Below, one piece after another: positions 4,406-27,275 of a stretch of DNA of 64,000 nt. Made by a program: the position numbers and the translations under genes. The notes under the pieces were generated by a model, which worked only from the letters and a program-made list of their open reading frames with translations, did no database searches and was not told the DNA's origin. This DNA is from a bacterium (GTDB lineage: Bacteria; Patescibacteriota; Minisyncoccia; Phycocordibacterales; UBA5272), in the NCBI GenBank assembly GCA_023267595.1, contig JAHFNB010000002.1, positions 23,947 through 87,946 on the forward strand. The letters are read 5' to 3'. Within the stretch, counting starts at the first letter, position 1. The number at the start of each line of letters is the position of its first letter.

Positions 4406-4480
4406 GGCCCTATCGTCTATCGGTTAGGACGTATCCTTCTCAAGGATAAAAGCGCGGTTCGATTCCGCGTAGGGTCACCA
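4406..4480 (+). tRNA. tRNA-Glu (anticodon CTC), CCA encoded
   Basis: Hand-folded cloverleaf: acceptor GGCCCTA/TAGGGTC, anticodon arm TATCC-TTCTCAA-GGATA, T-arm CGCGG-TTCGATT-CCGCG, discriminator A plus CCA. An extended -10 (tgtgcTATAAT) lies about 15 nt upstream. Confidence 0.85.
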
Positions 4481-4536: not shown

Positions 4537-6258
4537 ATGAGTTTTAAGTTTAAATCAGAGGATAAATCAATTGAAGAAGCTTTGTTTGGAATAAACAACC
4601 TAAGAGTTCCTCAGTTTCAAAGGCCTTACACATGGGAAGAAGACCAGTGCGGGGATTTTTGGAATGATCTAACTGATGATGATTCTTTTTTTCTGGGACA
4701 ATTTATTCTTAACTTCGAAAACAAGGAAAAGGAAAAATTTGTAGACATTGTTGATGGTCAACAAAGAACGACAAGTATATTAATACTATGTGCCGTTTTC
4801 CGCGATAAGTTAAAAGAGTTAGGTTTTAACGATGACGCAGATGTAATACAGGACAATGTGATGATTAGTAGAAAAAGTTTTGACGGGCCAGTCTTTAAGG
4901 TGCTGGTTTCACCCAACGTTAGTTCTTTTTTTGAAAAACACATTCAAACGGGTCAGAATGTGATTCAAACTAATACTTCATTTGATAATGATGAAGAAAA
5001 GAGGGTGATAAAAAACTATCTATTTTTTAAGGAGCAACTTAATGAACGCCTGTCTGGTTTAGATTTAAGTCATCAAGTCAAAGAAATAAAAAGAATTCAA
5101 ACTTTTCTGCTCAACACTAGAATAATTGTTACAGAAATCTATGATGAAAATGATGCTTATGAAATTTTTGAATCTGTGAATAATACAGGTATAGAGCTTG
5201 GGGTTGCGGACCTATTAAAAAATTTCTTGTTCAAGAGAGTTAAAATTGAAGAAGGGGGTTCAGTGTCAGATATAATGGATAAATGGAATGAAGTTTTAGA
5301 AAATGTCCAAAATTCTGAATTAACAAAATTTATAAGATATTATTGGCTTTCAAAACAAAAGGTTTTTGTAACTGAAGCAAAATTGTTTAAAGCAATCAAA
5401 AATCACCCTATAACCAGTGGTAAAGTATTACTACAAGAGCTTGTCGATAACGCTAAAATCTATTATGATTTACGAAACCCTCTTGATGCTGATTTTCAAA
5501 ATGTAGAGAACGTAGAAAGAGTTAGAAATTCCCTCATAGGAATAAGAGAGATGAATATTACTCAATGTTATGTTTTATTACTCTCTATCTATAGAAATAA
5601 AGATAAGATTAATACAAATTGGATAACAGTTTTTGAGCTTATTGAAAAATTTAATTTTATTTATCATGCTGTATCAAAATTACCAGCAAATAAGGTAGAA
5701 AAATTGTATCAAGAACTTGCCTTTAAAATAGAAGACATTGTAAACAAGAATGAAAACAGTGATTCGATGAGAGTTATTTTGGAAACTGAATTCAATAATC
5801 TTGAGAATAAATTAAAATCACTATTGCCCCCTAAAGAGGTTTTTATTCTAGGTTTTTCAGATCTCACTTATAAAAAGAAAGGTCTATGTCGATATACATT
5901 ATCAAAAATCGAAGAAAGTTTTGGAACCAAAGAGTATGTGCTTAACCACCCTACAATTACCATTGAGCATATATTACCTCAAAAACCTGGGAAAGACTGG
6001 AATTTAACATCCGGACAAATAAAAAACTATGTTCACAATATAGGTAATTTAACATTACTAGGTAAAAAACCTAATGGCACAGTTCAAAATAAGTCTATTG
6101 CAGATAAAATCATTATTTTAAAAGAATCAACAGAAGTAAAAATAACCCAGAAACTACTTTCTCAGATTGAGCCTACTGGTATATGGAATGAGGAATCTAT
6201 TAAAAGTCGAGCTATAGAGTTGGCAAATGTTGCCTTTGATAAGGTCTGGAAAATCTAA
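4537..6258 (+). CDS. GmrSD-family type IV restriction endonuclease-like protein (DUF262 N-terminal ParB-like NTPase + DUF1524 C-terminal His-Me nuclease)
   Basis: 573 aa. N-terminus has the DUF262 signature IVDGQQRTTS and FESVNNTG. C-terminus has the DUF1524 His-Me finger pattern IEHILPQ ... HNIGNLTLL ... N. Confidence 0.75.
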   Translation: MSFKFKSEDKSIEEALFGINNLRVPQFQRPYTWEEDQCGDFWNDLTDDDSFFLGQFILNFENKEKEKFVDIVDGQQRTTSILILCAVFRDKLKELGFNDDADVIQDNVMISRKSFDGPVFKVLVSPNVSSFFEKHIQTGQNVIQTNTSFDNDEEKRVIKNYLFFKEQLNERLSGLDLSHQVKEIKRIQTFLLNTRIIVTEIYDENDAYEIFESVNNTGIELGVADLLKNFLFKRVKIEEGGSVSDIMDKWNEVLENVQNSELTKFIRYYWLSKQKVFVTEAKLFKAIKNHPITSGKVLLQELVDNAKIYYDLRNPLDADFQNVENVERVRNSLIGIREMNITQCYVLLLSIYRNKDKINTNWITVFELIEKFNFIYHAVSKLPANKVEKLYQELAFKIEDIVNKNENSDSMRVILETEFNNLENKLKSLLPPKEVFILGFSDLTYKKKGLCRYTLSKIEESFGTKEYVLNHPTITIEHILPQKPGKDWNLTSGQIKNYVHNIGNLTLLGKKPNGTVQNKSIADKIIILKESTEVKITQKLLSQIEPTGIWNEESIKSRAIELANVAFDKVWKI

Positions 6259-11909: not shown

Positions 11910-12248
11910 ATGCAATTACCCTCATCATTTCTTCAAAAGAAAACACTCATTATGGAAATAGGTATTCTTGTTGTATTTTTGATTGGTATGTATTATCTCT
12001 ATACAATGTTTAGTGAACCAGATACAACTACAACATCATCACAAGCAAGCGAACAACTACTTGGTCAGAACCTAACTCTTTTCTTAAAAGCAGTACGTAA
12101 TGATAAATTATCATTTGATACATCATCATTTATGAATCAACCACTGATTGAGCAATTGCAAGATTTCTCTGAAACAATTATCCCTGCGTCATCACGTGGA
12201 CGTGACGATCCATTTGCACCTTATGCTTTTACTCGACCTCTTCGTTAG
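11910..12248 (+). CDS. Small membrane protein (possible PilP-like)
   Basis: N-terminal TM segment (IGILVVFLIGMYYLY); positional inference only. Confidence 0.35.
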   Translation: MQLPSSFLQKKTLIMEIGILVVFLIGMYYLYTMFSEPDTTTTSSQASEQLLGQNLTLFLKAVRNDKLSFDTSSFMNQPLIEQLQDFSETIIPASSRGRDDPFAPYAFTRPLR

Positions 12249-13971
12249 TCAAAATAAGTTAACAGAATTAGAAGCAAAAGACATTGAGTCTGATCTTTCT
12301 CTTCGTGATGATTTACTTGTCGATACTGCACTTGCTGCGAAAAAAATTACTCCTGAAGAAATTACTGAGGTGCGCAGTGTTCTCTACGGTCTTCCTATTT
12401 ATAAAGATGAGATTCCTGAAGGAAAAGAACTCACAAAATATATTAGTGTCGTACAATCAAAGCAATTACTTGCGGTGCCACTAGAATTAAAAGAAGGAGT
12501 ATTATCTGTTGGTGTTGTTGACCCAGAACATGCAAATGTGCTTGATAGTTTACAGTTTTTATTTGGTACTGATCATCAGGCATACAAAGTATATTTGATA
12601 ACGTACGATGCCTACAGAAAACATTTTGGACTAGCAACAGAAGTTCCTGATGAAAAAGCATCACTTACTACCAAAGTTGATGATACTGTCCTTTCTTATA
12701 TTTCAAAAGATGAAACAGGAGAAAAAGATGCACAAGGATTAAATGAAGAAATGGATTTATCTAATGTAACAGGACTTCTTGATGAAGGATTAGCAAAGTT
12801 ACCTATTCCAGATATTTTTAGTACGATACTTCGTTATGCAATTGATAATGGAGCCAGTGATATACATATTGAACATATTGGTACTGCAGTACGTGCGCGT
12901 GTCAGAATGGATGGACAATTAGAAACAATTACGACACTTCCGATGAAGATGCATCCAATGCTTGTCGCACGTATCAAGATTTTATGTTCTATAAAATTAG
13001 ATGAAAAGAGAAAGCCTCAAGATGGACGATTTAGTACCAAATTTGGTGATCATACTATCGACTACCGTGTATCAACGTTTCCTGGGTATTATGGAGAAAA
13101 GGTGGTGCTCCGTATTTTGGATAGTTATAAGGGAGTACGACCAATTGATACGCTTGGATTTGGTGAGCAACAAATGAAAGAAATTCGTGATGCACTCGCA
13201 AGGCCATATGGAATGATCCTTATTTGTGGGCCTACAGGAAGTGGAAAGACCACGACGTTGTATTCAATGTTAAATGAAATAGACCGTGAACACAGAAATG
13301 TAGTGTCTCTTGAAGATCCAATAGAATACAATGTACCGTCAATGAATCAATCACAAGTATTCCCAGAGATTGGCTATACGTTTGCTTCAGGACTGCGTTC
13401 AATACTACGTCAAGATCCTGATGTTATTATGGTTGGAGAAATTCGTGATGCAGAAACTGCGCAACTTGCAATTCAAGCCGCACTCACAGGACACTTAGTA
13501 TTTTCAACAATTCACACGAATACGGCAATAGGAGTTGTTACACGTTTACTTGATATGGGTATAGAGCCGTACCTTATTGCACCTACAATTATTGCAACGA
13601 TTGGACAACGTCTTGCACGACAAATTGCAGAAGGATGTGCAGAAACTGTACAAATGACTACAGGTCTTACTGAAATAGTGCAAGAATCATTTAAAGATTT
13701 ACCCGATGAATTCAAAAAGAATCTTCCATTGGATAAACCACTTCATGAAGCAAAAGGAAATGCACAATTTGCAAATGGCATGAAAGGACGAGTTCCAGTA
13801 TTTGAAGTTCTTACGTTTACACAACCAATTGAAGAAGCAGTACTTCATAGTAAAGGTGAAGAAGAGATTTGGAAATTAGCACGTGCAAATGGCATGATTA
13901 CCATGAAAGAAGATGCAATTATTAAATGCATTAATGGCCTTATTCCGTTTGTCGAAATTAATGAACTTTAA
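12223..13971 (+). CDS. pilB: Type IV pilus assembly ATPase PilB (GspE family)
   Basis: GspE N-terminal domain, Walker A GPTGSGKTT, Asp/His boxes and C-terminal Cys-containing region. The ORF track starts at 12148, which overlaps the upstream gene, so the ATG at 12223 is preferred; the start remains uncertain. Confidence 0.9.
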   Translation: MLLLDLFVSQNKLTELEAKDIESDLSLRDDLLVDTALAAKKITPEEITEVRSVLYGLPIYKDEIPEGKELTKYISVVQSKQLLAVPLELKEGVLSVGVVDPEHANVLDSLQFLFGTDHQAYKVYLITYDAYRKHFGLATEVPDEKASLTTKVDDTVLSYISKDETGEKDAQGLNEEMDLSNVTGLLDEGLAKLPIPDIFSTILRYAIDNGASDIHIEHIGTAVRARVRMDGQLETITTLPMKMHPMLVARIKILCSIKLDEKRKPQDGRFSTKFGDHTIDYRVSTFPGYYGEKVVLRILDSYKGVRPIDTLGFGEQQMKEIRDALARPYGMILICGPTGSGKTTTLYSMLNEIDREHRNVVSLEDPIEYNVPSMNQSQVFPEIGYTFASGLRSILRQDPDVIMVGEIRDAETAQLAIQAALTGHLVFSTIHTNTAIGVVTRLLDMGIEPYLIAPTIIATIGQRLARQIAEGCAETVQMTTGLTEIVQESFKDLPDEFKKNLPLDKPLHEAKGNAQFANGMKGRVPVFEVLTFTQPIEEAVLHSKGEEEIWKLARANGMITMKEDAIIKCINGLIPFVEINEL

Positions 13972-14013
13972 AACAAAGAAATTGAATGATTACTAGTGAC
14001 TTAGAAAAAATAT

Positions 14014-14042
14014 TGACTTTTATATAAATATGTGCTATTATT
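14014..14042 (+). promoter_or_regulatory. Sigma70-like promoter (TTGACT-17 nt-tgcTATTAT) for the orphan 14092 gene
   Basis: aTTGACTtttatataaatatgtgcTATTATtt, with a strong SD aggaagga 8 nt before the ATG at 14092. Confidence 0.35.
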
Positions 14043-14091
14043 TATATAAATAAAAGTTCTTTTATAACTCCTTACAGGAAGGATAATAGAC

Positions 14092-14574
14092 ATGGAAAAC
14101 AATGGAACTATTGGAGTCCTTAAGGTCAGAAGAAGAAGACTCATCATCCCTGCGTGTGACGGTACTCGCGTTTTTTCAGAAATGAGAAAAGAGTATGGTG
14201 AAATCTATTTTGTAGACCAGCAAACCGTACAAAAAAACCATGTAACAAAAAAAGTCATAGTGGATGTTTACAAGTCGGTGTGTGATGCAACGTTTGTGCA
14301 GATGCTCGCCCCTTTTGGAAATGATCTCGATAGATTTTGCTTGACTCAACATCAGATTGACTTTTTTTTCAGGCGTCACTACTATACCTGCTCCTTTTTC
14401 AAAGCACCGTACGGAATCTTTTTCCTTCTCAAGGAAAAAGATCAGTATGTCCTCGCAAATATACGCTTACACACATTTCATTATTTGTCTGGGCTGATAT
14501 TTCCCCTTGATCACCCTTTCATTTGGCTTGCTGAGCATAACCCTCTTTTAGTTTTACCACAACAAGTGGTTTGA
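14092..14574 (+). CDS. Hypothetical protein (orphan insertion between pilB and pilT)
   Basis: 160-aa ORF with its own promoter, SD and downstream terminator; no recognisable domain. Confidence 0.4.
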   Translation: MENNGTIGVLKVRRRRLIIPACDGTRVFSEMRKEYGEIYFVDQQTVQKNHVTKKVIVDVYKSVCDATFVQMLAPFGNDLDRFCLTQHQIDFFFRRHYYTCSFFKAPYGIFFLLKEKDQYVLANIRLHTFHYLSGLIFPLDHPFIWLAEHNPLLVLPQQVV

Positions 14575-14604
14575 TTTTATGGTCAAATGATTTCTAGATA
14601 TTTA

Positions 14605-14638
14605 GTACCTCTGACCAATTTGGTCCGAGGTACTTTTT
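14605..14638 (+). terminator. Rho-independent terminator (gtacctctgacca-att-tggtccgaggtac + ttttt)
   Basis: 12-bp imperfect stem plus T-run directly after the 14092-14574 ORF. Confidence 0.5.
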
Positions 14639-14798
14639 CATGACGGCAGAAATGAAAAGTAGAATAGTTAAATTATAGAAAAATCTAACTTATAAAATCT
14701 GTGTCATATTTTTCTATTAACTGAAGTTATTGTCTGTAAACTATCTTAATTGTGGGTTGTTCAATTGTTTTCCATAACTTGCTTGTTATACTGATATC

Positions 14799-15857
14799 AT
14801 GAACTACGAGACAGAACTTGATGACCTCATCATGACACTTGTGAAAGAGGCAGGATCAGATCTTCATTTAACATCAGGATCATTCCCAACACTTCGTGTT
14901 AGTCGTGATCTCATTCCTCTTACGCGTAAAAAAGAATTGACAGGAGAAGATACGCTCGGATTTTTACGTGTTATGGTTGGGGAAAAGACACTTACAAATT
15001 TTGTAGTAAGTCAGGAGTTAGATTTTTCATATGAACATAAAAAAGAATACCGTCTTCGAGGAAATGCATCATTTCAACGAGGATTTATTTCTGTAGCCCT
15101 TCGTCTCATTCCAAAAGTTCATGCAATAGCAGAACTTAATCTTCCAGAGCAAATCGTAGCAATTGCACGTGAAAGACAAGGTTTTTTCCTTGTTGTTGGT
15201 CCTGTTGGACAAGGAAAATCTACAACACTTGCATCAATGATTGGGCTTATTAACAGTGAAGCAAAGCGTCACATTGTTACCATTGAAGATCCAATTGAAT
15301 TTCGTTTTGATCAAGATAAATCACTCATTGAACAACGTGAAGTCGGTGTTGATACCAAAGATTTTAATACTGCACTTAATCATGTTTTTCGTCAGGACGC
15401 AGATGTGATTATGATTGGAGAAATGCGTGATAAAGAAACCATTTCTGCCGCAGTCACTGCTGCAGAAACAGGTCACCTTGTTTTCTCTACAATTCATGCA
15501 AACTCTGCCGCACAAACAGTAGATCGTATTATAGATAGTTTCCCTGCAGATCAACAAGATCAGATTCGTCTTCAACTCGCATCATCTCTTATTGGTATTT
15601 TGTCCCAACGTCTTGTTCCTCGTGTGTCTGGTGGACTTATTCCTGCATTTGAACTTCTCTTAAATACTCCTGCAGTATCAAATCTTATACGTGAACGTCG
15701 TACGCATGAAATTGATGTGATTATTGAGACTGGTTCACAAGATGGTATGATAGATCTTGATAGAAATCTTGCAGAATTGGTACGTAAAGGAGAAGTTACT
15801 AAAGATGATGCACGTTCATTTGCACGCCGCCAAAATATATTTGATCGTCTTATCTAA
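14799..15857 (+). CDS. pilT: Twitching-motility ATPase PilT
   Basis: 352 aa, Walker A GPVGQGKSTT, Asp box, His box TIHANSAAQT, PilT-length retraction ATPase. Confidence 0.9.
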   Translation: MNYETELDDLIMTLVKEAGSDLHLTSGSFPTLRVSRDLIPLTRKKELTGEDTLGFLRVMVGEKTLTNFVVSQELDFSYEHKKEYRLRGNASFQRGFISVALRLIPKVHAIAELNLPEQIVAIARERQGFFLVVGPVGQGKSTTLASMIGLINSEAKRHIVTIEDPIEFRFDQDKSLIEQREVGVDTKDFNTALNHVFRQDADVIMIGEMRDKETISAAVTAAETGHLVFSTIHANSAAQTVDRIIDSFPADQQDQIRLQLASSLIGILSQRLVPRVSGGLIPAFELLLNTPAVSNLIRERRTHEIDVIIETGSQDGMIDLDRNLAELVRKGEVTKDDARSFARRQNIFDRLI

Positions 15858-15866
15858 TTTACGTTT

Positions 15867-17084
15867 ATGCTTTTTCACTATACCGCGATACAAGGAGATG
15901 GAACGAAAATAGAAGCAGACGTTGATAGTTATTCTTTGGATACGGCGATAGATTTACTACAAAAAAGAGGACTCAGTATTGTTGATATCAAAGAAAAAAC
16001 TGAAACGACACAATTACAACTTTTTACAGGATTTTCTTTATTTAAACCAAAGGTAAAATCAAAAGACGTCGTTATCTTTTCTCGTCAGGTAGCAACACTA
16101 TTTGAAGCAGGAGTTTCTGCACTTAAAGCATTTCGACTTCTTGCATCAGAAAACGAAAGTAAAGCATTACAAATAGAATTGACACATGTAGCAGATGATA
16201 TAGAAGCCGGAGTTTCTCTCTCAGATGCACTCGGTAGACGTCCAGAACTTTTCTCTACTTTTTATGTAAATATGGTAAAAGCAGGAGAAGAAAGTGGAAA
16301 ATTAAATGAAACCTTTTTATTTTTGGCAGATTACTTGGATCGTGATTATGAATTACATCAAAAAGTAAAAAAAGCCCTCACGTATCCAACATTCGTTGTG
16401 GGAACATTTATTGCCATTATGATTGGAATGTTCACCTTTGTGATTCCAAAAATGGCTGCTCTTTTTGCCGATAATGATGCAACACTTCCTCTTGTTACAA
16501 GAATAGTGCTGGGTATTTCTGATATCTTTGTAAAATATGGACCAATCACTTTTCCTTTACTTGTGGTAGCAGGTTGGTTTTTCTATAGATGGTCAAAAAC
16601 AGAGATGGGGACTCGTAAAATTGATGAGTTAAAGACAAAGACACCAGTTCTTAGAACTCTCTATCAAAGAATATTTCTAACGCGCTTAGCAGATAACATG
16701 AATACTATGCTTACAAGTGGAGTACCTATTGTAAAATCTATTGATATTACTGCTGCCGTTGTTGACAATGTTGTTTTTAAAGATCTCCTTAATCGTGTAT
16801 CACAAAAAGTGCAAGGTGGTACTGCTTTTTCAAAGGCACTATACGAAGAGCCGTTAGTCCCAAATATTCTCATTCAAATGGTACATATTGGTGAAGAGAC
16901 AGGAGAAATAGGGTATATTTTAAAGACACTTGCTACATTTTATAAGCGAGAACTAGATACAAGTATTGATAATGTTATTGGTCTTATTGAGCCTGCGATG
17001 ATTGTAGGCTTGGGTATTGCGGTTGGTATCCTTGTGTCGTCTGTACTTTTGCCTATGTATACACTTTCTTCTGCTATAAGTTAA
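15867..17084 (+). CDS. pilC: Type IV pilus platform protein PilC (GspF family)
   Basis: 405 aa polytopic membrane protein with duplicated GspF domains (two hydrophobic blocks). Confidence 0.85.
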   Translation: MLFHYTAIQGDGTKIEADVDSYSLDTAIDLLQKRGLSIVDIKEKTETTQLQLFTGFSLFKPKVKSKDVVIFSRQVATLFEAGVSALKAFRLLASENESKALQIELTHVADDIEAGVSLSDALGRRPELFSTFYVNMVKAGEESGKLNETFLFLADYLDRDYELHQKVKKALTYPTFVVGTFIAIMIGMFTFVIPKMAALFADNDATLPLVTRIVLGISDIFVKYGPITFPLLVVAGWFFYRWSKTEMGTRKIDELKTKTPVLRTLYQRIFLTRLADNMNTMLTSGVPIVKSIDITAAVVDNVVFKDLLNRVSQKVQGGTAFSKALYEEPLVPNILIQMVHIGEETGEIGYILKTLATFYKRELDTSIDNVIGLIEPAMIVGLGIAVGILVSSVLLPMYTLSSAIS

Positions 17085-17161
17085 TCTTATCCCCATATTC
17101 CCTTGTAGACCATCCCTCTTAGGATTATACTTACTTACATCTACTAAAAGATAGAAAAATT

Positions 17162-17773
17162 ATGTCACACACATTTATGAAAAAAGGTTTACGTGGGTTT
17201 ACGCTTATTGAACTTTTGGTGGTTATTGCAATCATAGGATTACTATCAACTGTAATTGCGGCACCTATTCAAAATGCACGAAAGAAAGCAAAAGATGCAA
17301 AGAAAATGGCAGAATTGAAAGCCGTACAGTCAGGACTTGATCAATATGCAGAAGCAAATGGTCAATATCCTGCAACATTAGGGGCACTTGTTCCTCAATA
17401 TATGCCTCGCTTACCTACTTTTGCATCTAGTAGTGCTGCAATTCGTGATCGATTCGCATATGTAGTCTATACAGGTACACCAACAAATGGTTCAGCAACA
17501 CGGTTCGGGTATCACTTAGGCGTTCATCTTGATGTGTTTGCAGAACCACTTAACAATGATGATGACTGTACAGGTTCTACAGTAGGGACATCTATTACTC
17601 CTCCTGCTTGTGTATGGTATAACTCTGGTGCTGCAATAACTGCTAGTTATCCAGATTGGGTAAGTGGAATGACAGGGACAGCAACTAATGCGGACTTTGA
17701 TGGAAGTGAAGCAGGGGATACAACATGTACCAACTCTACACAATGTGTATTTGATATAGCAGGCCAATACTAA
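17162..17773 (+). CDS. pilA: Type IV pilin (prepilin, probable major subunit)
   Basis: Class III signal KKGLRG|FTLIELLVVIAIIGLL with N-methylation site and E+5. Confidence 0.75.
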   Translation: MSHTFMKKGLRGFTLIELLVVIAIIGLLSTVIAAPIQNARKKAKDAKKMAELKAVQSGLDQYAEANGQYPATLGALVPQYMPRLPTFASSSAAIRDRFAYVVYTGTPTNGSATRFGYHLGVHLDVFAEPLNNDDDCTGSTVGTSITPPACVWYNSGAAITASYPDWVSGMTGTATNADFDGSEAGDTTCTNSTQCVFDIAGQY

Positions 17774-17785
17774 GGTTTTCTACTT

Positions 17786-18559
17786 GTGTTTTACGTTCTA
17801 TCTTTTCTCTTTGGTGCATCAATTGGAAGTTTTGTTCTTGTGATTGCGACACGACTTAACGTTGCACCTATACTGAAATCACGAAGTAAGTGCCTCTCAT
17901 GCGGAGAGGCACTTCGTGTATATGATCTGATTCCATTTTTCTCGTATATCTTTTTACGAGGTAAATGTCGTTATTGTTCATCACCATTTGGATTCACATC
18001 ATTAAGTATTGAAATAGTGTACGGTGTACTATACGTAGCCTTGTACCATTTTTTCCTCTTAGGAGAACATAGTCAGATAGGTATAGTGTTTTGGCTTCTT
18101 TATTATTCATTACTTTTTATCGTTATGGGAGTGATTGCACTGTATGATCTGAAACATACATATTTACCAGTGCCTTATTTATTAGGATATTGTGTGTTGA
18201 CCTTAGGTATGCTTTCTATACGGTACATGCAAAATGGAACAGGATTTACATTACTTGCTCCAGTTGTTGTTGCTCTTCCTTTTATGCTTCTTTGGCTTGT
18301 ATCACGGGGTAAATGGCTTGGATTCGGTGACGTTATCCTTTTCTTAGGAGTTGGCGCATTCTTCGGTATTGAACAAGGCTTTGCAGTGCTTTTACTTTCT
18401 GTATGGATGGGAGCACTTGTCGGTGTTGTTGAATATTTCGTTTATCAGAAAAATCTTAAAAGTAGAGCACTTCCGTTTGTACCATTTATTATTATTTCGT
18501 TTATTATTGTTTTGTTCACAGACATAGACATCTTTTCCATCGCGTCATTGTTTGCTTAG
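17786..18559 (+). CDS. pilD: Prepilin peptidase PilD (A24 family)
   Basis: N-terminal CxxC...CxxC zinc motif (CLSCGE...CRYC) and polytopic A24 peptidase membrane domain. Confidence 0.85.
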   Translation: MFYVLSFLFGASIGSFVLVIATRLNVAPILKSRSKCLSCGEALRVYDLIPFFSYIFLRGKCRYCSSPFGFTSLSIEIVYGVLYVALYHFFLLGEHSQIGIVFWLLYYSLLFIVMGVIALYDLKHTYLPVPYLLGYCVLTLGMLSIRYMQNGTGFTLLAPVVVALPFMLLWLVSRGKWLGFGDVILFLGVGAFFGIEQGFAVLLLSVWMGALVGVVEYFVYQKNLKSRALPFVPFIIISFIIVLFTDIDIFSIASLFA

Positions 18560-18574
18560 TGGTACTATTATCAT

Positions 18575-19231
18575 ATGGATTTCTCTCTTAAGTACCCGAA
18601 AGTGCGAGGATTTACGTTTATAGAATTACTTGTATCTCTTGCAATTATGGGGCTTATGATGACAATACTTTTATATCGCTATCCTGATACTGTAGTTCGT
18701 TTATCTCTTGCAAATGTTAGCCATACAACATCTCTTTTAATTCGAGAAGCACAGGTGCGTGGAAGTGCTATTGATTCAGTTAATAGTTCATTAGGAGGAT
18801 ATGGAGTGCGTGCATCACTTGCAACGCCAAGTAAACTAACATTGTTTGGTGATCTCATTGATATTAATGTTCCAAAACCATATGGTGTATATATAGGAGA
18901 TGGTTTATACGAAACATCTCCAATTGATGAAACAAAAAGTGAAACTAGGTTTCCAACAGGATATTCTTTTTCAAAATTATGTGTGATACCAACAGGTCAA
19001 ACAACATTTGTGTGTAATAGTAATTATTCTCCAAGTATTCAAACACTTACTGTATCATTCGTTCGTCCAAACCCTCAACCTTATATTTATATTAATGATT
19101 CAAAGGTAACTAATTTTACTGCAGGGTGTATAGAACTTATTTCGTATAAGGCTCCGTTAGTTGGACATGTACGTTCGGTACAAGTTTTTAACTCAGGGAT
19201 GATACGAACATATACAAGTGGATGTAATTAA
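18575..19231 (+). CDS. Minor pilin / pseudopilin
   Basis: Prepilin signal RGFTFIELLVSLAIMGLMMTIL. Confidence 0.6.
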   Translation: MDFSLKYPKVRGFTFIELLVSLAIMGLMMTILLYRYPDTVVRLSLANVSHTTSLLIREAQVRGSAIDSVNSSLGGYGVRASLATPSKLTLFGDLIDINVPKPYGVYIGDGLYETSPIDETKSETRFPTGYSFSKLCVIPTGQTTFVCNSNYSPSIQTLTVSFVRPNPQPYIYINDSKVTNFTAGCIELISYKAPLVGHVRSVQVFNSGMIRTYTSGCN

Positions 19232-19874
19232 TTCTATGAAAAAAATAATCTTTACCACATCATTACAAAACCCGAGAGGATTTACTCTTGTAGAACTTTT
19301 GATTAGTATGGTTATTTTCACTTCAGTAATCACGATTGCAACAGGGGCTCTTTTTTCTGCACAGACAATAAATACACGTCTTGAACAAACACAGTTAATA
19401 TTAGATGGTGTAAACCTTGCTGTAGAAGTAATGGCTCGTGATATTCGTTATGGTTCAGAGTTTCATTGTGATACAGTTATTCCTGCATCATCAATTCCAA
19501 TGACACGTACTAGTTGTCCATATGCAAATGGAGGAACTGTGATTATTTTGAGACCTTCAGTTGTGCTCTCTGGATCTAATGATCAAGCATCAGATCGAAT
19601 AATGTACTATCTTTCAAACGGTATTGTCTATAAAGATGAGTATAAAGAGGGTGTTATTGGAAATAAAATAACCTATCAGGTAACACCAACAGATGTGAAT
19701 ATTACAACACTTGCTTTCTATGTTACAGGTTCTGAAAATACATCAGCAGGAAATATTGTGCAACCACTCGTAACACTTGTACTCTCAGGAGTTACTGTTC
19801 CCGGTAAGACAAAAGTTACTCCCGTACAATTTACGATACAAACTAGTGTATCTGCTCGTGCGCTTGATATTTAA
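19218..19874 (+). CDS. Minor pilin / pseudopilin
   Basis: Prepilin signal RGFTLVELLISMVIFTSVITIATG. Confidence 0.6.
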   Translation: MDVINSMKKIIFTTSLQNPRGFTLVELLISMVIFTSVITIATGALFSAQTINTRLEQTQLILDGVNLAVEVMARDIRYGSEFHCDTVIPASSIPMTRTSCPYANGGTVIILRPSVVLSGSNDQASDRIMYYLSNGIVYKDEYKEGVIGNKITYQVTPTDVNITTLAFYVTGSENTSAGNIVQPLVTLVLSGVTVPGKTKVTPVQFTIQTSVSARALDI

Positions 19875-19878
19875 AATT

Positions 19879-20556
19879 ATGAGACTTTCTTTCTTATCAC
19901 AATTACAAAATAGAGTACGAGGGTTTACTCTCATCGAAACACTCGTCTCTGTTTTTATTATTACAACAGTAATTTTAGGGCCTCTTACGGTTGCATCAAA
20001 TGCCTCAACATATGCACGGCAAACAAAAGATACTATGACGTCTGTTTATCTTGCTCAAGAAACACTCGAGTTACTTCATCATGTGCAAGATTCTATCTAT
20101 CTTGAATGCGGTTCACAGACAAGTTCTAATTGTCTTCCACAAAATGGAGAGACACCCAGTGAAGCAGCATGGAGAATATTTAGAGCACGATTAGGATATA
20201 ACTCGCAAGGGGTATCATGTTATGCCATTGATAATCCGTCAGGGTGTACGTACGATTTTATTGATATGACGACTGATGAAAGTGCTAATCCAAGTAAATA
20301 TAGTAGTAATGGAAATTCCTGTGCAACATTATCAATAAGTATAGATCATGTGTATGTATGTACTGGTGTCCACGGAACTGGTTTTACCCCTACGTCATTT
20401 TCTCGAACACTTACTCTTACATCACTTAAAACATTTTCTGGTGGTGATGAAGATTATAATGACGATTTACGCGCCACGGTCACTATTTCATTTAAGCGAC
20501 CAAATGGATATACACGAAGAATAAAAGTAGTTGATTTTTTCCACGCACGCGCATAA
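19879..20556 (+). CDS. Minor pilin / pseudopilin
   Basis: Prepilin signal RVRGFTLIETLVSVFIITTVILGPL. The internal ATG at 19879 is chosen over the long overlapping start at 19777. Confidence 0.55.
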   Translation: MRLSFLSQLQNRVRGFTLIETLVSVFIITTVILGPLTVASNASTYARQTKDTMTSVYLAQETLELLHHVQDSIYLECGSQTSSNCLPQNGETPSEAAWRIFRARLGYNSQGVSCYAIDNPSGCTYDFIDMTTDESANPSKYSSNGNSCATLSISIDHVYVCTGVHGTGFTPTSFSRTLTLTSLKTFSGGDEDYNDDLRATVTISFKRPNGYTRRIKVVDFFHARA

Positions 20557-20560
20557 TCAT

Positions 20561-21193
20561 ATGAAATTATTTATATTTTTACAACATAAATTACGTAAAC
20601 AAAAAGGTTTTATTCTTCCGCTTACACTCCTTGTGTGTACTATTATTTTAACTGTTGCGACAGGTATTTCCGTTATCTTGGCCAAAGAGTTGTATTTTTC
20701 TCGAGTATCTCGTGATAGTCAACTTGCGTACTATGCAGCAGATACTGCAATGATGTGTGCACTTATGGTTGATGGAAAATATATTGATCCAACAACAGGA
20801 TTGGGTATTTTTCCATACAGTGCAGTGTTAGATGCAACAACAGAAATGAATACTGTATTAGAAAAGGTAAATCTACAAAGACAATTACGTAATTTACCAA
20901 ATCTTGTACTTGATGATATTAAGTGTGCTACTGCTCCTATATTTGATACTGCTATTTCTTCATTTACAACATCAGCATTTTCTCGTACCAACTCAGGTGG
21001 TGAACAAGAAAATGGTAAAACATCAACGTATACCATGCGAATGGATTTGGGAGATGGTACTGCACGTTGTGCATCAATTCTTATTTCAAAGACAGGTAAA
21101 TATAGACAAATTATTGCACGAGGATTTGCTGGATGTGAAGGCGTTGCTCATAATATAGAGCGTGCAGTTATTAATACAACAGAGGTCAGATAA
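20561..21193 (+). CDS. Pilin-like protein (PilX-like?)
   Basis: N-terminus KGFILPLTLLVCTIILTVATG is a degenerate prepilin-like hydrophobic segment. The ATG at 20561 is preferred. Confidence 0.4.
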   Translation: MKLFIFLQHKLRKQKGFILPLTLLVCTIILTVATGISVILAKELYFSRVSRDSQLAYYAADTAMMCALMVDGKYIDPTTGLGIFPYSAVLDATTEMNTVLEKVNLQRQLRNLPNLVLDDIKCATAPIFDTAISSFTTSAFSRTNSGGEQENGKTSTYTMRMDLGDGTARCASILISKTGKYRQIIARGFAGCEGVAHNIERAVINTTEVR

Positions 21194-21204: not shown

Positions 21205-23238
<2,034 letters not shown>

Positions 23239-23532
23239 TTGCCACATATGTCAATAACATTAGAGGAACTAGACAATATATCGACTCTTGCCCGTATCGA
23301 TATTACTTCTGTAGAAAAACCAAAAATGCTTGCCGATATGCAGGCGATTGTAGAGTATATTTCTGAAATTAACTCTGTTAAAGGATCGGTAGATACGATA
23401 ATAAACTCACATCATAATATTACCCGTGAAGATGTAGTTACTCATACTACTGGTGATACTACAGAAGTATTACTTAGTGAAGCACCAAGTATTGAAAACG
23501 GGTATGTGAAAGTAGAGCAAGTATTCAAATAG
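23239..23532 (+). CDS. gatC: Glu/Asp-tRNA amidotransferase subunit C
   Basis: 97 aa immediately upstream of and translationally coupled to gatA, with a GatC-like N-terminus. Confidence 0.7.
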   Translation: MPHMSITLEELDNISTLARIDITSVEKPKMLADMQAIVEYISEINSVKGSVDTIINSHHNITREDVVTHTTGDTTEVLLSEAPSIENGYVKVEQVFK

Positions 23533-24978
23533 GTGACAGATAACGAAGTGAGAGAAAATACCAAGATGCAAAAAACACTGAAACAATTACATGAAGAATT
23601 AAAATCAGGAACTCTTACAGTAGATGATTTGGTTTCATCGTATAAAAAAGTAATTAATGAAAAAGATGGAGAAATACATGCATTACTAGGTATGTATTCT
23701 GATTCATTAGTAGCATCACAAATTACAAAGGCAAAAGAAATGTTTGCAAATGGTACTGCGACTGTATTAACTGGTATACCTATTGTTTTAAAAGATAATA
23801 TTTTGGTGAAAGGTGAGTATGCAACTGGTGCTTCAAAGATTTTGGAAAACTATGTAGCAACATATGATGCAACTGTGGTAACACGATTAAAAGAAGCAGG
23901 TGCAATACTACTTGCACGTGCAAATATGGATGAATTTGCGATGGGTGGTTCAACGGAAAACTCTGCATTTGGTGTTACCAAAAATCCTTATGATCTCACA
24001 AAAGTATCTGGTGGATCATCCGGTGGGTCTGCTGCAGTTGTCGCGTATGGTGGAGTTCCTGTTTCTCTTGGATCAGACACTGGAGGGTCTATTCGTCAAC
24101 CTGCATCTTTTTGTGGTGTTGTAGGATTAAAGACTACGTACGGTGATGTATCACGCTATGGTCTTATGGCAATGGGAAGTTCTCTTGATCAGATTGGACC
24201 ATTTGGAAAAAGTGTAGAAGATGTAGAGGAAGTATACAAAATTATTAGTGGTTATGATGTACACGATAGTACTTCACTTAAAGACGGAGAGCGAGGAATC
24301 AAGAACGAAGAACAAATAAAAAAAGTTATTGGTGTACCACGAGATTTTATTAATCGTGACGGTATCGATAAAGAGGTAATTACAAACTTTAATGAATCTC
24401 TTGAAAAATTAAAAAAATCTGGATATCTTATAAAAGATATTACAATTCCAAATCTTGAGAAAGCATTGTCAGTGTATTACATTATTATGCCAGCAGAAGT
24501 TTCCAGTAACTTAGCACGATACGATGGTATCAGGTACGGGTTGTCTCGTGGTGGAGAAACGAGTATTCGTAGTTACTTTGAATCTCGGACTGCAGGATTT
24601 GGTGAAGAAGTTCGTCGTCGTATTTTATTAGGTACATATGTGCTTTCTTCTGGATATTATGATGCATATTATAATAAAGCAAATATTGTGCGTGCAATGC
24701 TTACCGAAGAATTTGTAAAAATATTTAAAGATGTAGATGTAATTGCAACACCAACTTCTCCAGTTCCTGCATTTGGAATTGGAGAAAAAACAAAAGATCC
24801 ACTTGCAATGTATTTGGCAGATATTTTTACAGTACCTGCAAACATTGTTGGAGTTCCTGCAATTTCAATTCCGAGTGGAAAAACAGAAAAAGGTCTTCCT
24901 TTTGGCATGCAGTTTACAGCAGCACATACTCGTGAGGATGTACTATTCACTATCGGTAAAGATTTTGAAAAGTTATAA
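23533..24978 (+). CDS. gatA: Glu/Asp-tRNA amidotransferase subunit A (amidase)
   Basis: Amidase signature GGSSGGSAAVVA and Ser-cisSer-Lys region. GTG start at 23533, with an alternative ATG at 23566. Confidence 0.9.
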   Translation: MTDNEVRENTKMQKTLKQLHEELKSGTLTVDDLVSSYKKVINEKDGEIHALLGMYSDSLVASQITKAKEMFANGTATVLTGIPIVLKDNILVKGEYATGASKILENYVATYDATVVTRLKEAGAILLARANMDEFAMGGSTENSAFGVTKNPYDLTKVSGGSSGGSAAVVAYGGVPVSLGSDTGGSIRQPASFCGVVGLKTTYGDVSRYGLMAMGSSLDQIGPFGKSVEDVEEVYKIISGYDVHDSTSLKDGERGIKNEEQIKKVIGVPRDFINRDGIDKEVITNFNESLEKLKKSGYLIKDITIPNLEKALSVYYIIMPAEVSSNLARYDGIRYGLSRGGETSIRSYFESRTAGFGEEVRRRILLGTYVLSSGYYDAYYNKANIVRAMLTEEFVKIFKDVDVIATPTSPVPAFGIGEKTKDPLAMYLADIFTVPANIVGVPAISIPSGKTEKGLPFGMQFTAAHTREDVLFTIGKDFEKL

Positions 24979-24996: not shown

Positions 24997-26373
24997 ATGT
25001 ATTCATTCTCCATAGATTATCTTTTTAATAGAGTGTACGACGTATTGCTTTGGATAAAGTATGTTTGGCTTTTTGGTATTTTACGTATTGATCCACAGGC
25101 ATATTTGGATGCACATATAGATAGAACATGGGATGGACTTCGTGATAGAGGATGGTTTGATAGTTATTTAGCCCACAAGAGTGATACGATGTTACCTGCA
25201 GATGTGCATGTATCTTTATGGCAAAGAGTTCTTGAAAAGTTTGGATATAAACTTCCTGATTCTGATAATGACGGTATTCCAGATGTTACAGATCCTAGTC
25301 CGTATGATTCTCATAATTTATCACAAGCAGCATTAAAAGAGCGTTATCAAGAAGATTACACGTTATGGGATAACATTAGAGATATTTTTGGTATTGGTCC
25401 AAAAGAAACTGATGGTGATGGAGTTCCAAATAGTTATGAATCTTCTCATGGTATGGATCCAAATAACCCTGATTCTGATAGAGATGGATTATTAGATGGT
25501 GAAGAATTACGTATAGGTACTGACCCACTTAATAATGATACAGATCATGATCTCGTACTAGATGGTCGCGATGAAGCACCACTTGATTCTTCTGTATCAT
25601 CAATTGGTCCTGATTCTGATGGTGATGGAGTGAGTGATAAAATCGAGAAATCACTTGGGACTGATATCTATAAAAAAGACTCTGATAGCGATGGTATTCC
25701 AGATTCTATGGATACGTACCCACTTGATGCAAATAATCTCAGTCAGGCACCTTCTTTTGATATTACAAAACATGTTGATGGGTTACATCTTTCCATACAA
25801 AATCCTATTCTTGCTCTTGTTGCAGATTTTTTGTCTATACTCACCATTCTCATTCTTCTTGTTCTTGTTTATGCTTCTGTGCGGTGGTTTATACAATTTG
25901 TAGGTTCACTTAATCATTATGAACATCATTTTATCGATACTCATAAACATAAAGGCGGTAGTTTTCATACTATCAAAGATGAAAGTATGCCTGCAGGTAT
26001 TCCGAATCTTCCTGTTGCAGAAGTTGGTGCTCCAATTGCACCCCCACAAGTAGAAGAATTTAAAAATCATCCACGTTTTGCAATTATTGAAGGATATTTG
26101 AGTAGTACAAGTGAAGCATTATGGAGGATAGGAATATTAGAAGCAGATAATTTACTCCATGATGTATTAGTAGAAAAAGGATATACAGGAACTGATATGT
26201 CAGAACTTCTTAAACAGGCACACTTCAAAACAATTGATCTTGCATGGGACGCACATAAAATACGAAATAGAATTGCACATGAGGGTTCAGCATTTGTACT
26301 TACAGAACGTGAAGCAAGACGTGCATTTACGTTGTATGAATCTGTGTTTAAAGAATTGAAAGTGATTAAGTAG
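24997..26373 (+). CDS. Membrane protein with thrombospondin type-3-like Ca-binding repeats and a C-terminal HEPN/DUF4145-like domain
   Basis: Repeated DxDxDGxxD motifs (DSDNDGIPDVTD, DGDGVPNSYE, DSDRDGLLDGEE, DSDGDGVSDK, DSDSDGIPDSMD), a TM segment ILALVADFLSILTILILLVLVYA, then a C-terminal region with AHKIRNRIAHEG (Rx4H-type HEPN-like motif). Confidence 0.5.
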   Translation: MYSFSIDYLFNRVYDVLLWIKYVWLFGILRIDPQAYLDAHIDRTWDGLRDRGWFDSYLAHKSDTMLPADVHVSLWQRVLEKFGYKLPDSDNDGIPDVTDPSPYDSHNLSQAALKERYQEDYTLWDNIRDIFGIGPKETDGDGVPNSYESSHGMDPNNPDSDRDGLLDGEELRIGTDPLNNDTDHDLVLDGRDEAPLDSSVSSIGPDSDGDGVSDKIEKSLGTDIYKKDSDSDGIPDSMDTYPLDANNLSQAPSFDITKHVDGLHLSIQNPILALVADFLSILTILILLVLVYASVRWFIQFVGSLNHYEHHFIDTHKHKGGSFHTIKDESMPAGIPNLPVAEVGAPIAPPQVEEFKNHPRFAIIEGYLSSTSEALWRIGILEADNLLHDVLVEKGYTGTDMSELLKQAHFKTIDLAWDAHKIRNRIAHEGSAFVLTEREARRAFTLYESVFKELKVIK

Positions 26374-26430: not shown

Positions 26431-26501
26431 AGCGGAGTGGAGTAGAGGTAACTCACGAGGCTCATAACCTCGGGACACCAGTTCGATTCTGGTCTCCGCA
26501 A
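26431..26501 (+). tRNA. tRNA-Met (anticodon CAT), possibly initiator
   Basis: Anticodon arm CGAGG-CTCATAA-CCTCG, T-arm ACCAG-TTCGATT-CTGGT, acceptor AGCGGAG/CTCCGCA with unpaired 1:72 (A/A). CAT could also be tRNA-Ile2 (lysidine). Confidence 0.7.
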
Positions 26502-26527
26502 CAAGTAGTGCTACGTGACAAACACCA

Positions 26528-26568
26528 GGGAAGAAGCGCCCGCCACGTAGTGGCGGGCGCTTCTTCCC
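26528..26568. repeat. Perfect 19-bp GC-rich hairpin (GGGAAGAAGCGCCCGCCAC-gtag-GTGGCGGGCGCTTCTTCCC)
   Basis: Seen directly between the two tRNA-Met genes. The GC content is very atypical for this AT-rich window. Confidence 0.5.
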
Positions 26569-26627
26569 ATTAACATAAGTACTATCTTTTATCGGGCTTA
26601 TGGGTTACAGTTATTAAATAAAAATAT

Positions 26628-26701
26628 GTCAGTGTAGCTCAGTTGGTTAGAGCGAAGGACTCATAAGCCTTAGGTCGGAGGTTCGATCCCTCCCACTGAC
26701 A
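26628..26701 (+). tRNA. tRNA-Met (anticodon CAT), elongator-type or Ile2
   Basis: Acceptor GTCAGTG/CACTGAC perfectly paired, anticodon loop CTCATAA, variable AGGTC, T-arm GGAGG-TTCGATC-CCTCC. Confidence 0.75.
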
Positions 26702-26757
26702 CCCGTTTATACGGATTCTAGTTTTTTGCTAGAATGTGCAAGTAAGATTACAATCAT

Positions 26758-26831
26758 GCAGTCGTAGCTCAGCTGGTTAGAGCACCGCCCTGTCACGGCG
26801 GGGGTCGTGGGTTCAAATCCCATCGACTGCG
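26758..26831 (+). tRNA. tRNA-Asp (anticodon GTC)
   Basis: Acceptor GCAGTCG/CGACTGC, anticodon arm CCGCC-CTGTCAC-GGCGG, T-arm GTGGG-TTCAAAT-CCCAT. Confidence 0.85.
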
Positions 26832-26839
26832 CAAAAAGT

Positions 26840-26862: not shown

Positions 26863-26951
26863 GGGATTTGAATAGGGGTTGCGAAATTACTTCGAGCCTG
26901 CCTCGCCGTTAGGCGGGCAACGCGAGGCAGGTTTGCGACCAAATCCTATCA
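26863..26951 (+). repeat. Structured GC-rich element, copy A (GGGATTTGAATAGGGGTTGCGAAATTACTTCGAGCCTGCCTCGCC...GCGAGGCAGGTTTGCGACCAAATCCTATCA)
   Basis: Nested inverted repeats GGATTTG/CAAATCC and CCTGCCTCGC/GCGAGGCAGG. Roughly 75% identical to the minus-strand element at 56687-56789, with compensatory changes. The 3' end mimics the tRNA-Asp 3' end (about 15 of 18 nt). Confidence 0.5.
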
Positions 26952-27002: not shown

Positions 27003-27275
27003 ATGCAAATGTCAATTAACCTCTTCCACATAGTTGTCTTAATTTTTCGTACTTTTTGGATGGTACTCATCTCTCTTTTTATCTGGGTGAAAGGGTTTCC
27101 TCTTGTTCAACAACTTTTTTCAATAGTATTGCATATTATCGTTATCGGTTCTTTTATAGTAAGTATCTTTACGCAAAATCTCACTATGTTTGTGATATCA
27201 GGAGCCTTTCTTTTTCCATTTCCATATTCTATTGTATTACTTGCTATAGGATGTAGTTTCTTGCTTGCTATCTAA
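27003..27275 (+). CDS. Small hydrophobic membrane protein (hypothetical)
   Basis: 90 aa with three predicted TM segments; no homology recognised. Confidence 0.35.
   Translation: MQMSINLFHIVVLIFRTFWMVLISLFIWVKGFPLVQQLFSIVLHIIVIGSFIVSIFTQNLTMFVISGAFLFPFPYSIVLLAIGCSFLLAI

Follow-up and report, generated by a model that had tools for sequence, protein, structure and literature searches.

A HEPN domain is described as an up-down bundle of four helices that carries a conserved acidic residue in helix 2 and has an insert placed between this helix and helix 3, and the active HEPN ribonucleases (RNases) share an Rx4-6H signature at the end of helix 3, in which the arginine is followed by one of the polar residues N, D and H (Anantharaman et al. 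2013, Biol Direct 8:15, PMC3710099). Domains that keep this signature have proved to be RNases wherever tested, and non-catalytic HEPN domains have typically lost it (PMC3710099). The same survey described bacterial inner-membrane proteins with cytoplasmic HEPN domains and a possible part in external sensing, used Ire1 as an analogy for them, and recognised among them DUF4145 domains with a 'WP' transmembrane helix, Abi2/Swt1-family HEPN domains that follow a single transmembrane helix preceded by an all-alpha domain, and proteins made of a HEPN domain, two transmembrane helices and a Zn-ribbon. RNase Y and also RNase E have elsewhere been described as housekeeping, decay-initiating endoribonucleases that an N-terminal transmembrane or amphipathic helix keeps on the cytoplasmic side of the membrane (PMC11313650, PMC8096251). 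In this study, we analyzed a 64,000-nucleotide stretch of patescibacterial DNA (contig JAHFNB010000002.1 of assembly GCA_023267595.1, positions 23,947 to 87,946; hereafter, the window) and followed up one of its genes, X, which directly follows gatA and encodes a 458-residue protein with thrombospondin type 3 (TSP3) repeats, a transmembrane helix and a C-terminal HEPN-like domain.

What is unusual about X is less the fusion of TSP3 repeats to a HEPN domain than the behavior of the gene, which encodes a HEPN protein with its catalytic motif intact and appears to be maintained like a core, class-wide gene of ultra-small bacteria. By contrast, nearly all known bacterial HEPN proteins act as toxins or defence effectors, with a patchy distribution and fast evolution. 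The combination of an invariant motif, a membrane tether, a fixed slot after gatA and divergence at the pace of LigA and GatA argues for a core cellular job. We therefore favor a reading in which X is a core, membrane-tethered, cytoplasmic HEPN RNase that serves normal RNA turnover, RNA processing or translation control, carries an ectodomain that varies between lineages, and is no mobile abortive-infection (Abi) module; we give this compound reading a probability of about 0.55.

The folded part of the C-terminus comprises about 100 residues (359-458), and not the approximately 130 proposed in the preliminary description of this gene, which had been made from the sequence alone; residues 306-358 are a linker. 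The domain contains AHKIRNRIAHEG, and the Rx4H-type motif noticed there is indeed present as RNRIAH at residues 423-428. Across an alignment of 30 sequences, 38-71% identical to the domain in the window, D384, L387, G398, W417, H420, R423, N424, I426, A427 and H428 do not vary and E382 is conserved in at least 90%; R423, N424, I426 and H428 are also invariant among 25 closer, full-length homologues. Of 150 cluster representatives of the domain, 149 have an RNxIAH-type motif. The AlphaFold2 (AF2) model of the domain, built on the same 30-sequence alignment, was of high confidence (pLDDT 92.4, pTM 0.84), with helices at domain residues 9-18, 23-43, 51-57, 63-82 and 87-103. Helix 2 (23-43) bears E382-A-D384, the short helix 51-57 is an insert, and helix 3 (63-82) bears A416-W-D-A-H420 and, near its end, R423-N-R-I-A-H428, in which the polar residue after the arginine is N424. 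The order of the helices, the insert and the position of the motif match the published description of HEPN domains (PMC3710099) and lead to the HEPN assignment. In support of this, the best PDB matches in Foldseek had TM-scores of 0.55-0.61 and the top three were all HEPN proteins, namely 1wwp (probability 0.99, TM-score 0.55), 1wty and 2hsb (annotated as HEPN, TM-score 0.61), with MtlR (3brj), a HEPN-MNT complex (8xeh) and AbiV (9bj7) lower in the list.

Sequence models point in the same direction, each of them below its cut-off. When 30 diverse family members were compared one by one with Pfam, sub-threshold matches were found to HEPN_Swt1 in 18 of the 30 (best E 5.7e-4), RiboL-PSP in nine, pEK499_p136 in six, Cthe2314 in two, and DUF4145 and Hypoth_Ymh in one each, and eight of the 30 matched Cas13e of NCBIfam; the recurring Pfam matches were thus mostly to HEPN families, with CTD11 and DUF6548 (six members each) as the exceptions. 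Some of these matches span nearly the whole profile, such as that of P0155 to Swt1 (profile positions 20-109 of 115; 17.1 bits, the highest Swt1 score listed for a relative, E 0.007) and that of P0148 to DUF4145 (positions 10-87 of 88; 14.2 bits, E 0.047). Such recurrence on one superfamily among 24,736 models appears to be no chance pattern, though each match alone is sub-threshold. The window protein itself gave no significant C-domain match in Pfam, NCBIfam, PADLOC or PDB sequence models, and searches of PDB chains with the whole protein and with two C-domain profiles returned nothing relevant. Its isolated C-terminus matched a single Pfam model, Swt1-like HEPN (E 0.19), which is the nearest one (PF18731; 12.4-13.4 bits against a cut-off of 27.5). 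DUF4145 (PF13643; cut-off 23.1 bits) did not match the window protein, and the best relative, P0148, remained below that cut-off. Since the motif, the AF2 structure, the fold matches and the recurring sub-threshold family matches converge, we consider it very probable that the domain belongs to the HEPN superfamily. The HEPN-family reading of the preliminary description thus remains the best available assignment, and its DUF4145-like label needs correction, as no member reaches the cut-off of DUF4145 or of any other Pfam HEPN family.

The domain defines a large family. A C-domain profile searched against 1.84 billion cluster representatives, defined at 50% identity, found 2184 proteins at E<=1e-3, of which 1047 were at E<=1e-10; none of the member names within the sequence clusters was informative. 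Most members have only 190-240 residues, with the C-domain at the extreme C-terminus, and 131 of 150 representatives have a strong transmembrane segment, a median of 28 residues upstream of it. The N-terminus comes in two styles. Many short forms begin with a conserved helix that carries an xN/DxEYxF motif (FLNLEYVF, NVEYWFRLLY), of which SIDYLFNRVY in the window protein is clearly a version by sequence; others, among them the relatives with bacterial SH3 (SH3b) domains, have a Lys-rich tail followed by a strong first transmembrane helix (TM1). Between this first element and the transmembrane helix lies, depending on the lineage, almost nothing, a set of TSP3 repeats (the clade of the window protein) or bacterial SH3 repeats. 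Four relatives of 470-610 residues (P0194, P0216, P0249 and P0157) have three to five SH3 repeats (SH3_3/GW-like, with SH3_3 over its cut-off) between the strong TM1 and the transmembrane-HEPN module, and together with the TSP3 clade they indicate that the same cytoplasmic domain has been paired with different extracellular modules. Because most family members have about 200 residues and no TSP3 repeats, the TSP3 module is best read from these comparisons as a lineage-specific ectodomain inserted into an older helix-transmembrane-HEPN protein. The family has an invariant core that consists of an N-terminal helix, a transmembrane helix and a cytoplasmic HEPN-superfamily domain of about 100 residues.

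The transmembrane helix at residues 270-297 is unambiguous in the window protein, with a Kyte-Doolittle maximum of 2.86 over 19 residues and an AF2 helix at 270-306 (pLDDT 74-88). Among the 131 representatives with such a segment, the 15 residues after it contain on average 3.05 Lys and Arg and the 15 before it 0.98; the C-terminal side is the richer one in 101 of the 131 and the poorer one in 14. By the positive-inside rule, this asymmetry predicts a cytoplasmic location for the HEPN domain and an external one for the variable segment, a placement that also suits Ca-binding TSP3 repeats and cell-wall-type SH3b domains. The window protein would then be a bitopic or an in-out-in hairpin protein of the inner membrane, depending on whether its N-terminal helix spans the membrane, which is uncertain. 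That helix is nearly invariant, with 12 invariant positions within residues 3-26 in an alignment of 25 homologues, and it is probably a weak signal-anchor or a first membrane helix. Directly after the transmembrane helix, a HYEHxF/HYEHHF motif with further His and Lys residues (25912-25971) is kept in long forms, including P0125, P0127, P0129 and P0133, and is missing from short forms; it could be a metal- or pH-sensitive element.

The repeats themselves are genuine TSP3-type repeats, of a kind predicted to bind Ca. Strict DxDxD cores occur at residues 88, 159, 181, 206 and 228, with a variant core, TDGDG, at residue 138, and the Asp ligand positions are all invariant among the 25 homologues. 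Pfam TSP3_bac (PF18884) matched in three stretches with 47.2 bits (E=1.9e-12; gathering cut-off 25); TSP_3 matched more weakly, and the NCBIfam repeat models CglD and MtsD were sub-threshold. The best PDB match of the full-length AF2 model in Foldseek was the Ca-binding Bap B domain (46 columns, root-mean-square deviation 0.9, 37% identity, probability 1.00); the full-length model has a pLDDT of 63.8 and, outside the transmembrane helix, part of the repeats and the C-domain, is too weak for its inter-domain geometry to be read. N-terminal to the repeats, the ectodomain has a motif, DGLRDRGWF, for which no family match was found and which is recognizable in the distant long forms P0129, P0133, P0137 and P0141 as DGFRDKGW or DGLRDLGW. 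The architecture given in the preliminary description is therefore found in the ORF: five or more TSP3-type repeats (in fact six cores, with PF18884 over its cut-off), a clear transmembrane helix after them, an Rx4H C-terminal domain, and a C-domain and repeats that the Lys and Arg asymmetry places on opposite sides of the membrane. The N-terminal hydrophobic anchor fared less well, in that a nearly invariant helix is predicted there but its hydropathy, a Kyte-Doolittle maximum of 1.44 at residues 13-31 against a usual threshold of 1.6, is weaker than the word anchor implied.

The genomic context is what makes X look like a core gene. A scan of GTDB, with one genome per species and the pattern HK[IVM]RNxIAH, confirmed the locus in at least 579 species genomes; the synteny and divergence figures that follow are for the best 80 of these loci. 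All 80 are titled Patescibacteria or Candidate Phyla Radiation (Paceibacterota, Nomura-, Kaiser-, Adler- and Zambryskiibacteria, the Parcubacteria group, and many generic third-party labels of the kind 'uncultured Ca. Saccharibacteria'). In 78 of the 80, gatA lies directly upstream of X on the same strand, and gatC and ligA precede gatA wherever the flank reaches, giving the order ligA-gatC-gatA-X. Two loci retrieved through exact protein look-up (L001 and L003) have the same order. A median of 33 nt separates the gatA stop codon from the first ATG of X; in the window, where X is present as a single copy, the gap is 18 nt, and AGGT lies 9 nt 5' of the ATG. More than 1000 full-length homologues with 62-75% identity to the window protein place the features of the gene well beyond chance. 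In the 21 loci with the TSP3 form, identity to the window was 60% for X (whole protein), 72% for GatA, 64% for LigA and 55% for GatC, and in the 59 short-form loci it was 47% for the X C-domain, 54% for GatA, 45% for LigA and 30% for GatC. By this comparison X appears to diverge about as slowly as LigA and GatA, a housekeeping-type rate, and these best loci give the picture of a core gene that is old and has been inherited vertically within Patescibacteria of the Paceibacteria type.

If the retained Rx4-6H motif is a guide, the C-domain would be a metal-independent endoribonuclease. The active site of HEPN RNases forms between two HEPN domains, and the activity of X would, by analogy, depend on two tethered proteins dimerizing so that their HEPN domains stand side by side. 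[quoted passage not shown] The TSP3 ectodomain may couple dimerization to outside conditions, such as Ca2+, the state of the envelope or contact with a host, in the manner of Ire1, and a role as a sensor protein is plausible; alternatively, the ectodomain might simply anchor the protein in the envelope.

Several observations weigh against this proposal. The family stays below the curated cut-off of every HEPN model in Pfam, and its profile matches no PDB sequence; the Foldseek E-values of the C-domain are all >=0.15, and four-helix bundles are easily matched by chance. With an N-terminal helix of such low hydrophobicity (1.44), it is uncertain how the acidic segment of 240 residues crosses the membrane. 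Shared gene order with gatCA, lastly, may reflect inheritance and not a common function. We consider doubtful the most far-reaching form of the proposal, in which X would be the first bacterial housekeeping HEPN ribonuclease: a membrane-tethered endonuclease that is fixed across Paceibacteria, is transcribed together with gatCA and, at the membrane, starts mRNA decay or processes tRNA or rRNA by analogy with RNase Y and RNase E and with the eukaryotic Las1 and Ire1. Its lineage-specific ectodomains (TSP3, SH3b) would allow these episymbionts to adjust RNA turnover in response to Ca2+, the envelope or contact with a host.

Another possible explanation for the order gatC-gatA-X-tRNA is that the HEPN domain is tied to tRNA metabolism, cleaving or checking tRNAs such as the substrates or products of GatCAB or the neighboring tRNA-Met and tRNA-Asp. 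Several HEPN RNases, including PrrC, RloC and HepT, act on tRNAs, the spacing of gatCA and X is on the scale of an operon in the same 78 of 80 loci, and X occupies the slot after gatA in which gatB usually sits. The usual gatCAB operon is split in the window, where a complete gatB (GatB_N and GatB_Yqey) lies at 53121-54551 on the minus strand, 27 kb from gatC-gatA; X as a replacement for GatB was rejected on account of this gene. The tRNA-Met/Met/Asp cluster frequently adjoins X, and the preliminary description rightly placed the gene directly 5' of it in the window (26431-26832). However, ligA is equally syntenic and functionally unrelated, so that inherited order suffices as an explanation. 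In 20 of 33 related loci, a tRNA-Met of 72-73 nt lies within approximately 700 nt downstream of X, on the same strand in 14 of the 20, and most of the remaining loci have the Met-Met-Asp cluster within 4 kb, often inverted; the cluster is thus often inverted or 1-2.5 kb distant, whereas the spacing to gatA is tight. For this reason, only the link between X and gatCA looks operon-like, and that between X and the tRNA genes looks like inherited synteny. No sequence feature of X suggests tRNA binding, and it is not obvious what a membrane tether would contribute to the quality control of tRNAs. Taken together, we regard a tRNA-directed function as unlikely.

It is also conceivable that X is a structural protein of the envelope or an adhesin, in which the TSP3 or SH3b ectodomain does the work and the C-terminal bundle, perhaps no true HEPN domain, is a non-catalytic cytoplasmic tail that binds a protein or ligand. 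TSP3 repeats are found in CglD and MtsD, which are proteins of gliding and cohesion, and resemble the biofilm protein Bap; the HEPN assignment, moreover, is statistically sub-threshold. One homologue even bears the PGAP name 'MSCRAMM family adhesin SdrC', a label that we rejected as an artefact of low-complexity Ser/Asp sequence. Against such a role, most family members keep the C-domain without any ectodomain, and the HEPN active-site residues (R, N, H and the acidic residue of helix 2) are invariant, whereas non-catalytic HEPN domains typically lose the motif (PMC3710099). We judge this explanation quite unlikely.

Defence genes are usually patchy in distribution and fast-evolving. The preliminary description had suggested a membrane-sited abortive-infection protein, and we looked for the marks of one. 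PADLOC gave no match for the window protein, and no relatives were found by tblastn in 50,697 phage records and 72,556 plasmids or in IMG/VR. No MNT (nucleotidyltransferase) gene, as expected beside a HEPN-MNT toxin, neighbors X in the window, where its flanks are gatA and tRNA genes, and at L001 and L003, with an Amidase gene upstream and unannotated ORFs downstream, no called gene has an MNT or nucleotidyltransferase Pfam match. X thus corresponds to no defence model of PADLOC and, in the loci compared, lies in no variable, mobile or island context. An Abi or toxin module, in which an ectodomain that senses attaching phage or a damaged envelope would lead the HEPN RNase to kill or arrest the cell, would suit the intact catalytic motif, the toxin or defence roles of most characterized bacterial HEPN proteins (PMC3710099) and an ectodomain that differs between lineages like an arms-race receptor, but we find it very unlikely and withdraw that suggestion given the slot between gatA and the tRNA cluster that is fixed in 78 of 80 genomes, divergence as slow as that of LigA and GatA, including a TSP3 ectodomain that is itself 60-75% identical across homologues, and the lack of mobile relatives, PADLOC matches and an adjacent MNT or other antitoxin gene.

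The coordinates of X, its parts and its neighbors are collected in Table 1.

Table 1. Position of X, of its predicted parts and of the flanking genes in the window.
Feature	Position	Strand	Basis or remark
X, whole gene (458 aa and stop, ATG start), TSP3-ectodomain form of the Patescibacteria membrane-HEPN family	24997..26373	+	Six-frame open reading frame (ORF) list, homologues
N-terminal conserved helix, residues 6-31 (IDYLFNRVYDVLLWIKYVWLFGILRI)	25012..25089	+	AF2 helix 6-31, hydropathy, conservation
Motif DGLRDRGWF, residues 46-54, ectodomain	25132..25158	+	G47-F54 invariant in 25 homologues
Six TSP3-type Ca-binding repeats, residues 86-246	25252..25734	+	Pfam TSP3_bac
TSP3 repeat cores	25258-25293, 25405-25440, 25471-25506, 25537-25572, 25612-25647, 25678-25713	+	
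Transmembrane helix, residues 270-297	25804..25887	+	Kyte-Doolittle, AF2
Juxtamembrane His-rich motif NHYEHHF..HKHK (residues 306-325), then Pro-rich linker (326-358)	25912..26070	+	pLDDT 31-47
C-terminal HEPN-like domain, residues 359-458	26071..26370	+	AF2, Foldseek, sub-threshold Pfam
RNRIAH, Rx4H motif with polar residue after R	26263..26280	+	Motif search, conservation
ligA	21241-23238		Upstream of gatC
gatC	23239-23532	+	ORF list; Pfam GatC in homologous loci
gatA, 481 aa, amidase-type	23533-24978	+	ORF list; Pfam Amidase in homologous loci
tRNA-Met, 72 nt	26431-26502	+	ARAGORN, Rfam
tRNA-Met	26627-26704	+	ARAGORN, Rfam
tRNA-Asp	26758-26832	+	ARAGORN, Rfam

Between 24000 and 28000, an Rfam scan found the three tRNAs and nothing else above threshold. 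A perfect, GC-rich hairpin of 19 bp (GGGAAGAAGCGCCCGCCAC gta GTGGCGGGCGCTTCTTCCC) lies at 26528-26568, between the two tRNA-Met genes, in a genome of 36% GC; it scans as a minus-strand terminator, its matches to Atu_C9 of Rfam are weak and sub-threshold, and it may belong to what the preliminary description had called element A. A second GC-rich inverted repeat (GCCTGCCTCGC ... GCGAGGCAGG) at approximately 26896-26932, just 3' of tRNA-Asp, is followed by a very hydrophobic ORF of 90 residues (27003-27275). Directly upstream of ligA, a type IV pilus-like cluster occupies 12148-21193 on the plus strand, with a PilB-type ATPase (12148-13971), a PilC-type T2SSF protein (15867-17084) and then six ORFs of 200-260 residues; an N_methyl pilin-like gene is found upstream of ligA in L003 as well, and the synteny of pilus genes and ligA may likewise be conserved. 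Farther away, a GmrSD-type restriction endonuclease (GmrSD_N and GmrSD_C) at 4537-6258 (+) stands right after tRNA-Glu (4406-4480) and is plausibly a small defence insertion at a tRNA gene, and a RelA/SpoT homologue (HD_4, RelA_SpoT and TGS) at 58144-59628 (-) indicates that this reduced genome retains stringent-response machinery.

Should the RNase activity prove real, it would give a name to a large family of 'hypothetical proteins' in Patescibacteria (2184 clusters at 50% identity), enlarge the reduced RNA-processing repertoire of these bacteria by a new enzyme, and provide a simple bacterial counterpart of Ire1-type signaling, from the cell exterior to an RNase inside. Should it not, a new HEPN-like family without Pfam coverage would still be a useful annotation. 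A literature search retrieved the 2013 HEPN survey and no description of this Patescibacteria family. The preliminary description did not recognize the architecture as a described system, which was too strong, as membrane-associated bacterial HEPN domains had been predicted in 2013 (PMC3710099); the concept of a membrane HEPN has been known since then, and what appears to be new here, by the literature searched, is a probable HEPN family that lies outside Pfam coverage, is confined to Patescibacteria among the best loci, is fixed after gatA and carries TSP3 or SH3b ectodomains.

How, then, does X compare with known systems? With CglD and MtsC/MtsD of Myxococcus it shares the DxDxDGxxD Ca-binding repeats (PF18884, over cut-off) and only these; the window protein is far below the equivalog cut-offs (37 versus 400 bits), and those proteins have no HEPN domain. 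The HEPN-MNT pairs (PDB 1wty, 8xeh and 8xdj) include the best structural matches of the C-domain and have the Rx4H motif in common with it, but they are soluble, patchy and mobile and sit beside an MNT antitoxin, whereas X is predicted to be membrane-bound, is syntenic and has no MNT neighbor. RNase Y and RNase E offer a functional analogy only: X, like them, would be a conserved protein encoded among core genes, yet both have catalytic folds of unrelated kinds (HD/KH for RNase Y, RNase E/G for RNase E), and they have no ectodomain. The eukaryotic Ire1 resembles X in being anchored in the membrane, with a domain on the opposite side that could drive dimerization of the cytoplasmic HEPN RNase. 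The window protein differs from Ire1 and RNase L in having no kinase domain and in its canonical helix order, the KEN domain being circularly permuted, and no homology was detected past the superfamily level. The membrane HEPN groups of 2013, like X, have a HEPN domain that retains its Rx4H motif and is tethered to the cytoplasmic side of the inner membrane, and they may have an external sensing part; their Swt1-like HEPN and DUF4145 models are the nearest in Pfam to the family of X. Unlike those groups as they were described, among them the Salmonella-type Abi2/Swt1 proteins, the family of X misses the Pfam cut-offs and lacks the WP signature and the Zn-ribbon; it has instead an xNxEYxF N-terminus, a TSP3 or SH3b ectodomain and, among the best 80 loci, an exclusively patescibacterial distribution with a fixed place after gatA.

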